Assembly: GCA_038727095.1 (NCBI GenBank)
Contig: JAVYWK010000041.1
Span: 1-13,282, forward strand
Length of the DNA: 13,282 nt
Direction: 5' to 3'
From: Thermofilaceae archaeon
Lineage (GTDB): Archaea; Thermoproteota; Thermoprotei; Thermofilales; Thermofilaceae
Shown: positions 1 through 3,515 of the stretch, piece after piece
How the letters are laid out: the number at the start of each line of letters is the position of its first letter
Position numbering within the stretch: position 1 is the first letter of the stretch
Notes under the pieces: model-generated
What the model was told of the DNA's origin: nothing
The model's input: only the letters and a program-made list of their open reading frames with translations
Database searches by the model: none
Made by a program: the position numbers and the translations under genes

Positions 1-108
1 GGCGGCTCGGGCCGCCCCCGGGCGCCCCGGGGGGGGGCTCCGGGCCCGTTAGAGCTTCGCTGTTACTGGGGGGCGCGCCGGCGCGCGGGGCTCCCGGGCT
101 GCCCGGGA
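1..108. repeat. Cluster of GC-rich short inverted repeats/palindromes (may continue beyond the window edge)
   Basis: GGCGGC(1-6)/GCCGCC(11-16); CCCCGGG(16-22)/CCCGGGG(26-32); perfect palindrome GCGCGCCGGCGCGC (73-86); TCCCGGGC(92-99)/GCCCGGGA(101-108). Confidence 0.6.
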
Positions 109-122
109 TTGGGGCCTGGTTC

Positions 123-294
123 CGCTTCAACTGTTTCAGCTCCCTTGAGGCTGCGGCTCCTGCTGCTTCCCTCACTTCGCACGCTTAACTCCGATGCTTC
201 GACTCCGATGCTCCGCTCGGCTGCCGCTGCTTTCGCGCTGAACTGTAACCGCTTAACGCCGCTCAAAGCTGCCGAGAAGTACTGCGCTTAACGC
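123..294. repeat. Dispersed short direct repeats CGCTTAAC(GC) plus a tandem ACTCCGATGCT duplication
   Basis: CGCTTAAC at 182-189, 250-257 and 285-292 (the last two extend to CGCTTAACGC, 35 bp apart). Variants: CGCTTCAAC 123-131, CGCTGAAC 236-243, CGCTCAAA 260-267. ACTCCGATGCT at 188-198 and 202-212. Confidence 0.55.
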
Positions 295-540
295 TCCCCA
301 GCCCCTTGCGGGGGTTTGGGGTTTCCGGTTGTGCCGGCCCCCCGCATCCCTCCGCCCTGGATGAAGCTCTCGCGGAGGGAGGGCGTACGGTAGGGAGCGG
401 ATGGGGGTCGGCATGGTTGCGGAGACCCCCACAACCCTCCGATGGGGGCGGGGGGAGGAAAAGGCCAAACAGCTGGGCGCAGTTGAGCCCGCCCCTCCGA
501 GGGGGATCCGGGCTCTGCCCGGTGAAACCCGGAGGGGGGC
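294..540 (+). other. Long imperfect stem-loop (294-457) plus a second structured domain (475-540) overlapping the tnpB 5' end
   Basis: Nested stems: CTCCCC(294-299)/GGGGAG(452-457); GCCCC(301-305)/GGGGC(445-449); GGGGTTTCCG(318-327)/CGGAGACCCC(420-429); TGCCGGCCCCC(332-342)/GGGGGTCGGCA(403-413); TCCCTCCGC(347-355)/GCGGAGGGA(372-380). Second domain: GAGCCCG(485-491)/CGGGCTC(509-515) enclosing CCCCT/AGGGG. Confidence 0.6.
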
Positions 541-1870
541 AGCAACCCCCAAGGCACCGTCTAAAAACTTTGGGGACGGGGAGTGGGGGTACAGGGTCTT
601 CAAGGTGAAGTTGAACAGAGGGTTAAGGAGGGCTCTCATTATACTTTACAACAGGATTATGAACCGGGATCCAACGCTGCCAAAAAGTATCTACTACTAC
701 ATCGAGAGCTGGGAGGCGGTTTTCGCCAACGCCTTCAGCCTGCGGCGGAAGGCGGGGAAGAGGACGCCGCCGCGACCACCACCGTACTTCCTTTTGGTCA
801 AGTTCATCAAGGATGGGAAGAGGATCCACGGCTCAGACGGCGCCCCGGTCGTGGTCGACATAGACCGGGGGGAGCTTCGGATCCCCTGTGTGGGGATCCG
901 GATCCCCCTAACGCCTTCACTGCTCAGAGTTCTTCAAGAGGAGCTTACCTTACAGCCTAAGCCTCAATTCGTACTCCTGCTCCGGTACAACGGGAAGCTC
1001 CGAATAGTGGCGAAGCGGTCGCCGCCTCAGTGGAGGCTCGAGCCTCCGGTTCGGGTGATCGGAATCGACGTGAACAGCCGCTACGGTCTCACCGTTACAA
1101 TCTTCGACATCAAGAAGGACGGAGTTAGGATGGCGAAGAGCCCTCTCCGTTTCAAACCGCCGAACGATACCCTTTACCTGGCAGAAGCGAGCGTGCTCAG
1201 GAAGATTTCACGAGGCCTGCCGCCAACCCCGCCTAGGAACGCCACCGAGGAGAAGCGCAAGCTCTGGCAGTGGGCCCTGGAGAGGGTGAAGGAAAAGGAA
1301 AGGAGGACTGGGGCTTTGACGACAGAAAGAGCCGATCGCCTCCGTCGTCAGTTAGAGCAGGCAACGAGGATAGCGAGGCAGCGCTGGGCCCGAAAACTGC
1401 TGGGAGAACTCCGACAGCTTATCCGCGAGGCGGGAGGTAGGGCTGTCATCGCGGTCGATAACCCTGATCCTAATTCCTTAAGGAACAGTTCCCTCCAGAA
1501 AACATATTTAAGTGCAACGAAACTCATCGAGGATCTATGCCGATACGAAGGGGCCCTCTACCGGAGCGTGCGGGCTTCCGGTAGGAGGTGCCCGCTATGC
1601 GATCGGTTCTGTGAGGAGATAGAGCACCGATACTACCGGTGCAGCCACTGTAGCGTTGTTTTCGACCGCGACTACGGCGCTTCGTTCAGAGCAGGCCTTA
1701 TTGTTCTACCACCGGCACTCGCCGACATGCTCAGGGGGTGGCTGAGGAAGCACCCCCGAGCTTTGGCACCCAACTACGGCAACGGGCCCCAACGAACCCC
1801 ACCTCCGGGCCCCACTTCCTGGGACACCCCGGGGCACTCCCGGGGCGCTCTCGGGGGCCCGCGCGCGTGA
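401..1870 (+). CDS. tnpB: TnpB-family RNA-guided endonuclease-like protein (RuvC + zinc ribbon), divergent
   Basis: N-terminal WED-like strand YRVFKVKL; RuvC-I VIGIDVN (D223); Arg-rich bridge helix; RuvC-II VIAVD (D353, normally E); zinc ribbon CPLC..CSHC (C397/400/414/417); RuvC-III FDRDYGAS (D424); low-complexity Pro/Gly tail overlapping the structured RNA. Start could be ATG 401 or 413. Confidence 0.85.
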   Translation: MGVGMVAETPTTLRWGRGEEKAKQLGAVEPAPPRGIRALPGETRRGAATPKAPSKNFGDGEWGYRVFKVKLNRGLRRALIILYNRIMNRDPTLPKSIYYYIESWEAVFANAFSLRRKAGKRTPPRPPPYFLLVKFIKDGKRIHGSDGAPVVVDIDRGELRIPCVGIRIPLTPSLLRVLQEELTLQPKPQFVLLLRYNGKLRIVAKRSPPQWRLEPPVRVIGIDVNSRYGLTVTIFDIKKDGVRMAKSPLRFKPPNDTLYLAEASVLRKISRGLPPTPPRNATEEKRKLWQWALERVKEKERRTGALTTERADRLRRQLEQATRIARQRWARKLLGELRQLIREAGGRAVIAVDNPDPNSLRNSSLQKTYLSATKLIEDLCRYEGALYRSVRASGRRCPLCDRFCEEIEHRYYRCSHCSVVFDRDYGASFRAGLIVLPPALADMLRGWLRKHPRALAPNYGNGPQRTPPPGPTSWDTPGHSRGALGGPRA

Positions 1871-2123
1871 AGGAGGGTCCACTCCCTGGCCCGGTTAGGC
1901 CCAGACCGAGCTGGGAATCCCCCTCCGGGACGCGCTCCGGCGACGGGGCGCTGAAAGGAGGGGGTGTAGGCCGCTGCCGAGGGCCGCTGAAGGCGGTGGC
2001 GGCCGACCCCATGACACCCACCCCGGTCACCCGCGGCCCAAAACCGCGGAGGCCGGAAAGCGGGCCCCTCGAGGCCGAAAAGGCCGAAGAGGGGAGATGT
2101 GCACCAGGCGCGGAACCAATTGG
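1781..2123 (+). ncRNA. Putative omegaRNA/reRNA (TnpB guide scaffold) overlapping the tnpB 3' end; last ~15-20 nt would be the guide
   Basis: Successive stems: CGGGCCCC(1806-13)/GGGGCCCG(1854-61); CCCCGGGG(1827-34)/TCCCGGGG(1838-45); CCCAG/CTGGG(1900-1915); CCCCCTCC(1919-26)/GGAGGGGG(1957-64) enclosing CGCTCCG-GCGA-CGGGGCG (GNRA loop); GGCCGCTGCC(1969-78)/GGTGGCGGCC(1995-2004, tandem G.U); CCGCGG(2031-36)/CCGCGG(2044-49); terminal hairpin 2065-2094. Position matches the known location of TnpB omegaRNAs. Confidence 0.6.
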
Positions 2124-2130
2124 TTTATAT
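2114..2130 (+). promoter_or_regulatory. TATA-box-like TTTATAT overlapped by palindrome AACCAATTGGTT, upstream of yjbQ
   Basis: The only AT-rich stretch before yjbQ; TTTATAT at about 2124-2130, ~40 bp upstream of GTG 2170; perfect 12-bp palindrome at 2114-2125. Confidence 0.45.
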
Positions 2131-2169
2131 CCGCTGTAAGCGGATGGGCTGGGCGAGCGGCTCGCTGCG

Positions 2170-2592
2170 GTGAGGATCTTGAAGGTCTATTTCAAGGAGG
2201 TAATTGTAAGGACGCAAAAGAGGCGTGAGCTGGTAGATATCACTCACGAGGTTGAACACGCAGTCGATGCAAGCGGAATCAGCAACGGGTTATGCCTTGT
2301 TTTTGTCCCGCATGCTACAGCCGCCGTAGTGGCGAACGAGCATGAGAAGGGTTTAATGAACGATATTTTGAGAAAGCTAGAGGAGGAGTACCCAATCAAT
2401 GGGGAATGGGAGCACAACTTGATCGACGATAATGCAGCTGCGCACCTCGCTTCCGCGTTCATTGGGTCTGCGAGGGTTTTCCCGGTAAAGGACCGCAGAC
2501 TCGTTCGAGGAACCTGGCAGAACATCTTCTTAGTCGAACTCGACGGACCACGCTCTACCCGAAGAATCTTAGTGGAGGTGATGGGGGAGTGA
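2170..2592 (+). CDS. yjbQ: YjbQ/UPF0047 family protein (secondary thiamine-phosphate synthase family)
   Basis: Motifs VDIT, PHATAAVVANE, HN..DDNAAAHL and GTWQNIFLVELDGPR; 140 aa. Confidence 0.93.
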   Translation: MRILKVYFKEVIVRTQKRRELVDITHEVEHAVDASGISNGLCLVFVPHATAAVVANEHEKGLMNDILRKLEEEYPINGEWEHNLIDDNAAAHLASAFIGSARVFPVKDRRLVRGTWQNIFLVELDGPRSTRRILVEVMGE

Positions 2593-3515
2593 GCCTGGAA
2601 GTGGTCCTCGTTGGACACATCGTGATTGACACCATTGTGAAGGGGATGAGGAGGTGGCAAAGCTTGGGTGGAACTGTTGTCTATGGAGCCTTTGCCGCGT
2701 TAAGGCATGAAGCTAAACCCTCTATAGTGTCTAAAGTCGGGGAGGACTTCCCGGACGAGTACTTTCTCTTCTTATCGCGGAACGGCATCGACTTGTCTAA
2801 CGTCAGAGTCGTTAGGGCGACAAGAACGACACGCTTCAAGCTCACTTACAGAGACAGTACGAGGGAGCTTACTCTTCAGTCTAAGGCAGAAGACATTACG
2901 GCTTACGACGTCGAACTCATTAACCTGGACGGAAAGATCGTCATAGCGGGCCCTGTGATCGGTGAATTGGCGCCAAGCATTCTTGAATTTATTCATTCGA
3001 GAGCCGCGCTAACGGCTGTCGATTTGCAAGGCTACTTAAGAACGGCTAAGGTGAAGGGTGAGGTGAGGCTTTCACGTAGTGAAGCAGCAGTCAAGGCTCT
3101 CGAGAGCGCTGACATCGTCCACGCAGACGCGGACGAAGCAGGCGTATTGACGGGTCTTGAACCGCATAACGCGGCAGCATGGATCGTGAGTAGAGGCCCT
3201 AAAGCCGCGCTTGTTACTATGGGAAGCGAGGGCGCTTACGTGGCAACAACTGACAGGGTTCTCTTTGTGCCCTCCCTTGAACCTTCACAGGTGGTTGATA
3301 CAACGGGGGCAGGCGACATTTTCCTAACGATTTTCACAGTCGAGTACGCACGCGGGGCATCTATAGAGGAAGCTGCTGCAATGGCAGCGGCTGCTGTATC
3401 GTTCCGCGTTGAAAGGCACGGATTCGATAGTCTACGTGAACGTTGGATCGTTAGAGGTAGAGCTCAGAGGATATTGGACGGTATACGAACTGTTGCTGTT
3501 CAAAGCAAAAGCTAA
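2589..3515 (+). CDS. PfkB/ribokinase-family carbohydrate or nucleoside kinase
   Basis: N-terminal VLVGH..IDT and LGG motif, SKVGED, VTMGSEGA and the PfkB signature DTTGAGD; GTGA overlap with yjbQ. Confidence 0.9.
   Translation: MSLEVVLVGHIVIDTIVKGMRRWQSLGGTVVYGAFAALRHEAKPSIVSKVGEDFPDEYFLFLSRNGIDLSNVRVVRATRTTRFKLTYRDSTRELTLQSKAEDITAYDVELINLDGKIVIAGPVIGELAPSILEFIHSRAALTAVDLQGYLRTAKVKGEVRLSRSEAAVKALESADIVHADADEAGVLTGLEPHNAAAWIVSRGPKAALVTMGSEGAYVATTDRVLFVPSLEPSQVVDTTGAGDIFLTIFTVEYARGASIEEAAAMAAAAVSFRVERHGFDSLRERWIVRGRAQRILDGIRTVAVQSKS

Follow-up and report, generated by a model that had tools for sequence, protein, structure and literature searches.

A TnpB-like gene on contig JAVYWK010000041.1 of a Thermofilaceae archaeon (assembly GCA_038727095.1) specifies an aspartate at the RuvC-II position, where canonical TnpB nucleases carry a glutamate, raising the question of whether its product (designated here as P0001) is a decayed protein, a nuclease-dead DNA binder or an enzyme that operates with three catalytic aspartates. 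The window examined is the whole contig (C41; 13,282 bases), and its source genome, G000, comprises 1.86 Mb in 52 contigs with a completeness of 92%. The TnpB-type gene of this hot-spring archaeon belongs to a mobile element and, as judged from sequence comparison, is a member of a deep, Thermoproteota-restricted TnpB/Cas12f branch in which Asp replaces Glu at RuvC-II. Its product is probably an active, D-D-D RNA-guided TnpB nuclease of otherwise ordinary type, operating within a TnpB-only IS200/IS605-like element.

Conservation of an all-aspartate RuvC triad

The open reading frame (ORF) which an earlier note, made from the DNA letters alone, had placed at 401–1870 on the forward strand was recovered as a gene of 489 codons, with the three RuvC aspartates in the motifs GIDVN (D223), VIAVDNPD (D353) and FDRDYGAS (D424). 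Compared with the Asp-Glu-Asp triad of TnpB, the two outer Asp residues are kept and the middle residue is Asp. Profile alignment of the family against PDB sequences placed D353 opposite a Glu in two structures, within the motifs VENP of 9j09 and AVEDL of 9yyg, in agreement with the proposal that VIAVDNPD stands in place of the usual Glu motif.

A word-indexed search yielded 79 clusters, nearly all of which were composed of proteins from Thermofilum, Thermofilaceae or Infirmifilum metagenome-assembled genomes (MAGs), with members annotated as 'zinc ribbon domain-containing' or 'transposase'. Among 45 aligned close homologues, D223 is conserved in every row and D424 in 44, while 44 rows have D at position 353 and a single protein (P0057) has E; each of the four zinc-ribbon Cys residues is kept in 44–45 rows. 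The Asn of the DxNAA motif, the replacement of which (DYGAS) had also been pointed out, is missing clade-wide, position 426 being G, A, C, M or D in 45 of 45 rows.

When 1.84 billion representatives were searched with a family profile, only 238 proteins reached E≤1e-3 and 50 reached E≤1e-30, which marks the branch as narrow and very divergent. More distant full-length matches retain the Asp (e.g. VVIDVPSD and IIVDDVPD), and a handful of distant matches with canonical-looking motifs (IFEDLNEK, VLEDLNRD) carry Glu. In a 54-row maximum-likelihood tree (quick search, LG+G4; one Glu row, P0227, is shifted by one column in the alignment), 49 rows formed a single clade with D at the RuvC-II position in 46, E in one and S in two, the Glu rows being basal; the named distant members of this clade are Thermoproteota and Thermoproteus MAGs. 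The D223 position is D in 48 of the 49 clade rows, and the only columns that are acidic in at least 80% of them correspond to D153 (WED domain), D223, D353 and D424. No conserved Glu column was observed among these 49 rows. In both Ser rows, other catalytic residues have been lost as well; joint loss of the carboxylates and the zinc ribbon is confined to two degenerate rows (P0044 and P0203).

Within the source genome, four paralogues sharing 40–47% aa identity all possess Asp at RuvC-II. The cores of two G000 copies, L003 and L004, were shown to be under purifying selection, with proportions of synonymous (pS) and non-synonymous (pN) differences of 0.378 and 0.146, respectively. A private decay mutation is ruled out by this selection and by the persistence of Asp in 44 of 45 homologues and 46 of 49 clade rows, which, with the phylogeny, bears out the suggested divergent, thermophile-restricted TnpB clade with a clade-wide Glu-to-Asp change.

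A carboxylate still occupies the RuvC-II position, so the chemistry may be kept. The earlier note had listed, among other options, a catalytically dead RNA-guided DNA binder, i.e. a TldR-like regulator; in favour of this option, DxNAA lacks its Asn and RuvC-II its canonical Glu. However, retention of three carboxylates and four Cys residues over a deep clade would be unexpected if catalysis were not needed, and those rows in which one catalytic residue was lost had lost others too.

Predicted fold and termini of P0001

An AlphaFold2 model built on the 45 homologues reached a mean predicted local distance difference test (pLDDT) score of 82 and a predicted template modelling score of 0.76, with residues 61–460 modelled confidently and disorder predicted for residues 1–59 and 463–489. 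Comparison of the model with the PDB using Foldseek retrieved AsCas12f, ISDra2 TnpB and ISFba1 TnpB (8j12, 8h1j and 8iaz) with probability 1.0 and E-values of 5e-9 to 1e-8, and VIA-align superposed 297 residues on ISDra2 TnpB 8h1j (Z 12.8, root-mean-square deviation 6.3; model residues 61–440 versus chain residues 1–378). The predicted structure is that of a WED-REC-RuvC-TNB protein of the TnpB/Cas12f type. D223 is located near the C-terminal end of strand 217–225, D353 ends strand 348–353 and D424 starts helix 423–435 in the model; such placements agree with an RNase H fold, in which RuvC-I, -II and -III are expected at these sites.

Since the core (61–440) matches ISDra2 TnpB 1–378 end to end, the two are of equal core size, and the impression that the REC region is short was not upheld. 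The supposed 20-aa insertion before the bridge helix, GLPPTPPRNATEEKRKLWQW, is modelled at pLDDT >90 and was partly substantiated: GLPPTPP (residues 272–278, 7 aa) is present in 13 of 45 rows and thus represents a true insertion, whereas residues 279–291 are filled in 44 of 45 rows, except for position 282 (34 rows), and do not.

The N-terminal 60 residues (window 401–580) make P0001 ~40 residues longer at this end than the compact copies in genome G020. Its start codon is homologous to that of those compact copies, where GFRVF is reached after just 17 codons and a TATA-like sequence, CATAAATAGGG, is found ~35 nt upstream. Across the first 60 codons of the closest pair, L003/L004, pS and pN were 0.143 and 0.213, respectively, i.e. 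without purifying selection, and the N-terminal tail is thus kept as DNA rather than as protein.

Search for a compensating glutamate

Fanzor and TnpB2 proteins have Gly or Pro where the canonical Glu would be, and its role passes to another Glu ~45 residues further downstream, such as E467 of ApmFz2 or E323 of TvTnpB (PMC10530073 and PMC10691335). When the family profile is aligned with ApmFz2, E467 is positioned in the linker that joins strand 5 to the zinc ribbon; in P0001 this linker reads VRASGRR and contains no acidic residue, confirming that a compensating Glu just before the zinc ribbon is absent. The rearranged RuvC-II of Fanzor/TnpB2 was consequently not found in P0001, its canonical position being Asp and its linker devoid of Glu. 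Two other candidates were considered and rejected: E383 is invariant in close kin but coincides with the Y/H of a W-Y/H-G motif in distant members of the D clade, and E406 is situated inside the zinc ribbon, outside the linker to which ApmFz2 E467 aligns.

A separate situation was encountered in an Infirmifilum-type subclade (P0053, P0054, P0060, P0066, P0071 and P0084), the members of which keep the Asp at RuvC-II. The linker of this subclade contains a two-residue insertion with a Glu (P-E-N-N-V-S-G-K), located at the alternative-Glu site of Fanzor/TnpB2.

A structured right end with a candidate guide RNA

Conservation of DNA between copies is stronger in the flanks than in the gene itself, with window positions 1–604 and 1808–2118 matching other copies; the 3' conserved segment starts near 1808, within the part of the ORF encoding the disordered C-terminal tail. 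Nine copies share the terminus GGCGCGGAnC, after which they diverge completely, and the window copy ends at 2116. A consensus of 44 base pairs derived from eight right ends was converted into a covariance model (R1), which matched eight sites in G000, seven in G014 and 20 in G020. For six tnpB-like genes of G020, the match is located ~80–130 nt past the aligned gene end and on the same strand. In 31 aligned copies from three genomes, 89.3% of cells were paired versus 42–52% with slid partners, and two-sided changes were observed in 16 pairs compared with 8.0±1.9 in shuffled alignments, none of 500 of which reached 16.

Model R1 gave no matches in 14 loci of other subfamilies (G013, G014, G018, G022 and G004), and zero counts over whole genomes carry little weight, as scoring was often limited to 111 of the candidates. 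By eye, CCCATGAC and GCGCGG-AAC motifs were also recognized at a G013 right end. Rfam produced no match in window 1–2600 and only a sub-threshold SorX match in L002–L005. Contigs of RNA library X15 cover 1613–1829 and 1946–2026 but no part of 958–1305; given that the right end is multi-copy and that DNA carry-over is possible, these contigs are no evidence of transcription. If the RNA were to read through the terminus, positions 2117–2140 would constitute its guide.

Right-end matches outnumber tnpB-like genes (20 versus seven in G020 and seven versus one in G014; loci L027–L055). This surplus implies that many gene-less right-end or miniature copies exist, and miniature derivatives consisting of a left end plus a right end were identified at C21, C1 and L005.

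The mobile element, its insertion sites and the missing transposase

Upstream similarity extends ~1 kb further in L002, L003 and L004, and the contig therefore starts inside the element; window 1–604 is 77–79% identical to L003 and L004. Between the left end and the gene lies a GC-rich module of ~0.9 kb without long ORFs (window 1–400; L003:2980–3900 on the reverse strand). The identity of this module among G000 copies is 77–91%, versus 40–47% aa identity of the corresponding paralogues. A conserved RNA was considered for the module and rejected, as it is present only in G000 (one of 23 genomes of the family) and has no Rfam match.

Protein matches were obtained in seven of the 23 genomes of the family, mostly several in each, with 13 in G013, 13 in the complete genome G018 and seven in G020. 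The L003 copy forms a 3,165-bp insertion, the flanks of which are contiguous in G014, G011 and G013 and ~66 nt apart in G012. For the window copy, an empty site was found in G014, where the left side matches G000 contig C25 up to 15872 and the right side matches the window from 2115; one contig from metagenome DNA run X1 displays the same empty-site junction at 2115. In both empty sites, the host sequence corresponding to the left junction is CGAAG or CGAGG, and C-Y-G-A-R-G-G was found at five of five left junctions; the CGARG motif fits a target-adjacent motif of the IS200/IS605-like type. However, CGAGG recurs after the right end of the L003 copy, and the left boundary of other copies lies at another internal position. 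For the G020 copies, no sharp left-end boundary could be set.

Searches for a Y1 TnpA (PF01797) gave no matches in G000 or in five further genomes that contain members of the family, among them two single-contig assemblies of 99% completeness, and serine recombinases (PF00239) were absent above the cut-off from five genomes; control genomes were positive. The reported lack of tnpA in the window is correct, yet says little by itself, as the contig starts inside the element; the designation 'solo' is justified by the lack of TnpA in full copies and in all six genomes searched.

The missing transposase would suit the dead, TldR-like binder introduced above. The gene is, however, multi-copy, patchily distributed and insertion-polymorphic rather than fixed beside a target operon, and the flanks of the right end differ at every copy. 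Because the three carboxylates are precisely what is conserved, a nuclease-dead protein is disfavoured; with the zinc ribbon also kept, the core under purifying selection and the element furnished with its own guide RNA-like right end, we regard this part of the earlier note as highly improbable.

Two G000 copies are bordered by altered host DNA. At L003:1130–1200 (contig C3), a 32-nt host stretch occurs twice in tandem directly after the terminus, with one mismatch; this stretch is single in the G014 empty site, and the junction of the tandem copies creates the stop codon of a neighbouring host gene. At L004:1203–4335, as compared with L076:259–984 of G014, the element replaces 726 nt of host coding sequence that is kept in G014 and is found nowhere else in G000, indicative of insertion with an adjacent deletion.

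Regarding the left side of the window copy, synteny with G014 suggests that G000 C25:15873–27312 (L078) joins the window start, although this join is not assembled. The resulting insertion would measure ~13.7 kb, starting with a left-end-like fragment and having the window element as its right part, and would include an 11-kb defence-type island encoding an nSTAND3 NTPase, a type IIG-like restriction-methylase (in two ORFs) and a HerA-like ATPase.

A small opposite-strand reading frame

In the left part of the element, a small ORF is positioned opposite to the tnpB-like gene (L003:3971–4147, forward strand, and eight further places in G000, e.g. L004:3996–4169 and L006:2365–2532). Its core of ~58 aa has the consensus EALEAF..AGL.PGSIAFTRGEGRAVLIQLRGGWLKAY, and its frame is open at nine of ten matched places, the C21 copy being disrupted. 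Differences among eight aligned copies favour the third codon position (317/268/484). None of the eight copies had a Pfam match, no PDB sequence matched at E≤10, and only unnamed viral clusters were retrieved from the Atlas; an AlphaFold2 model attained a pLDDT of 68.7. Identification of the ORF as AbrB/MazE is thus unsupported. In G020, where the element is only ~1.7 kb, the small ORF is reduced to a remnant.

This ORF bears on the idea that the gene forms part of a domesticated or addiction-type module, toxin-antitoxin-like or linked to defence, which would be retained by the host or a larger island and would not act as a transposon helper. Besides the conserved reverse-strand ORF of the G000 copies, the apparent linkage of the window copy to a defence-type island is compatible with such a role, and an archaeal MazE/RHH-TnpB toxin-antitoxin concept (RHH, ribbon-helix-helix) is presented in PMC10691335. 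Nevertheless, the small ORF has neither a family nor a fold assignment, lies on the opposite strand and survives only as a remnant in the G020 element, while the join to the island was deduced from synteny and is not assembled. The MazE/RHH branch is moreover described in PMC10691335 as having His at RuvC-III and no zinc finger, unlike P0001. A module of this kind is therefore considered very unlikely.

Proposed activity

The interpretation of P0001 as a TnpB-type nuclease is based on its fold, conserved triad and zinc ribbon, together with the structured right end and the insertion behaviour of the element. We infer that the protein binds RNA and cuts DNA under RNA guidance, and that Asp can serve catalysis at RuvC-II. 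According to this model, the TnpB-like protein would bind the right-end RNA (scaffold at ~1907–2116, guide read from the flank) and would cleave a matching DNA target adjacent to a short motif, the metal ions being held by the three Asp residues, with D353 as second metal ligand. The element would insert 3' of a CGARG-type motif, and it is polymorphic between sister species.

Several observations weigh against this interpretation. PF07282 (Cas12f1-like TNB) matched residues 376–428 with 19.3 bits, below its cut-off of 26.3, NCBIfam contained no family for P0001, and PF01385 was not listed among its Pfam matches; precomputed PF07282 matches are present on many homologues. The alignment underlying the covariance statistics was fitted to the model, which favours structure. 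No transposase that would account for movement of the element was found in the six genomes searched, and its copies are old (75–84% nt identity in G018 and G020, 40–47% aa identity within G000), for which reason recent activity is not supported. Finally, loss of the RuvC-III Asn combined with the Glu-to-Asp change could mean altered chemistry, and Glu-to-Asp substitutions in other RNase H-like enzymes often lower activity.

The last point leads to the alternative of an active enzyme with altered chemistry, in which the shorter Asp and the missing RuvC-III Asn shift the metal geometry. The consequence, relative to D-E-D enzymes, would be nicking, a preference for Mn or for high temperature, or collateral cleavage that is either lost or gained. 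The natural Asp-to-Glu reversion in P0057, which shows both residues to be interchangeable, was counted in its favour. The substitution is nevertheless conservative, RNase H-like enzymes commonly alternate between DDD and DDE, and sequence data do not separate altered chemistry from ordinary double-strand cutting; we judge this alternative to be rather unlikely. If true, it would be an interesting outcome, given that trans-cleavage is known to be controlled by RuvC-II carboxylate geometry: the position and bulk of this carboxylate govern the activity in Fanzor and TnpB (PMC10530073 and bioRxiv 10.64898/2026.06.23.733943).

A further, frankly speculative and on balance unlikely extension of the nuclease interpretation is that the Asp-triad lineage persists and spreads in hyperthermophilic archaea without any transposase, the nuclease and its right-end RNA representing the sole element-encoded machinery. 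The flank scars (the 32-nt tandem duplication and the 726-nt host deletion) would then be footprints of its own cutting and of repair, and the shorter Asp an adaptation to heat or metal that alters cleavage.

Features of the window

The positions of the gene, its catalytic codons and the element boundaries are compiled in Table 1, together with the adjacent host gene.

Table 1. Coordinates of the tnpB-like gene, the surrounding element and the neighbouring host gene in the 13,282-base window
Feature	Position	Strand	Basis
3' part of GC-rich, ORF-poor module of ~0.9 kb, reaching the region upstream of the start codon	1..400	+	Similarity between copies
TnpB-like gene, 489 aa (P0001)	401..1870	+	ORF call and predicted fold; core 61–460 structured
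Codon of D223 (RuvC-I)	1067..1069	+	Residue 7 of 9 in predicted strand 217–225
Codon of D353 (RuvC-II position; Glu in canonical TnpB)	1457..1459	+	End of predicted strand 348–353
Zinc ribbon/TNB, CPLC (397–400) to CSHC (414–417)	1589..1651	+	Motifs and sub-threshold PF07282 match
Codon of D424 (RuvC-III), motif DRDYGAS lacking the usual Asn	1670..1672	+	Start of predicted helix 423–435
Element right end, putative structured omega-RNA-like scaffold ending in GGCGCGGAAC	1907..2116	+	Shared terminus and covariance model
First host bases past the element; putative guide part by analogy	2117..2140	+	Homology to G014 empty site from 2115–2117
Host gene, UPF0047 family, outside the element	2170..2592	+	Family assignment

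Comparison with known systems

Archaeal RHH/MazE-TnpB pairs resemble the present element in their patchy archaeal distribution, long 3' untranslated region and small neighbouring ORF (the latter in G000). In the published pairs (PMC10691335), the partner gene precedes tnpB on the same strand and encodes a recognized AbrB/MazE or RHH protein; in the RIIIr-4 branch, which includes these TnpBs, RuvC-III contains His and the zinc finger is missing. In contrast, the small ORF reported here is divergently oriented, lacks a family match and is dispensable in G020.

TldRs are nuclease-dead repressors fixed beside partner genes. They and other inactivated TnpB derivatives share with P0001 the TnpB fold and an associated guide-like RNA. 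Inactivated derivatives are characterized, in PMC10691335, by loss of catalytic residues or of RuvC-III and by immobility beside fixed partners, whereas P0001 keeps three carboxylates and is encoded by a mobile element, setting it apart from this group.

The overall resemblance to typical TnpBs, including ISDra2 TnpB (8H1J/8EXA), is considerable, encompassing the same fold and core size, DRD at RuvC-III, a guide RNA-like structured right end with a sharp boundary between scaffold and flank, and apparent insertion 3' of a short host motif with no obvious target duplication. The clade differs from these TnpBs by Asp in place of Glu at RuvC-II, the lack of the DxNAA Asn, high sequence divergence and the absence of a Y1 TnpA from the six genomes searched. 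The thermophilic archaeal protein SisTnpB1 is itself canonical (D187/E271; PMC11579290).

Fanzor, TnpB2 and the RIIr branches (Jiang et al. 2023; Altae-Tran et al. 2023) likewise represent whole, active-looking clades that have lost the canonical Glu. RIIr branches possess Gly or Pro at the canonical site and a second Glu ~45–50 residues downstream (PMC10691335 and PMC10530073), in contrast to the Asp clade, which keeps a carboxylate at the canonical position and has the Glu-free linker VRASGRR. Altae-Tran et al. 2023 (PMC10691335) distinguish two major clades and eight large branches in which RuvC-II is altered, and describe RIIr-6 and RIIr-8 as almost confined to archaea; the Asp clade may already be catalogued as an archaeal RIIr branch. 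No paper naming a D-D-D TnpB or a Thermofilum TnpB was found in the literature, the supplementary branch tables of Altae-Tran et al. 2023 being outside this comparison.

TnpB, Cas12 and Fanzor are described as D-E-D nucleases, and the known exceptions relocate the Glu. The present clade would show that Asp is tolerated, and has long been fixed, at the canonical RuvC-II position of compact hyperthermophile proteins with a core of ~380 residues. It would thereby constitute a natural test of how the length of the carboxylate affects metal geometry, the temperature optimum and the balance of cis and trans cleavage, all of which matter for editors and diagnostics, while its TnpA-less, insertion-polymorphic elements bear on how TnpB-only elements move.

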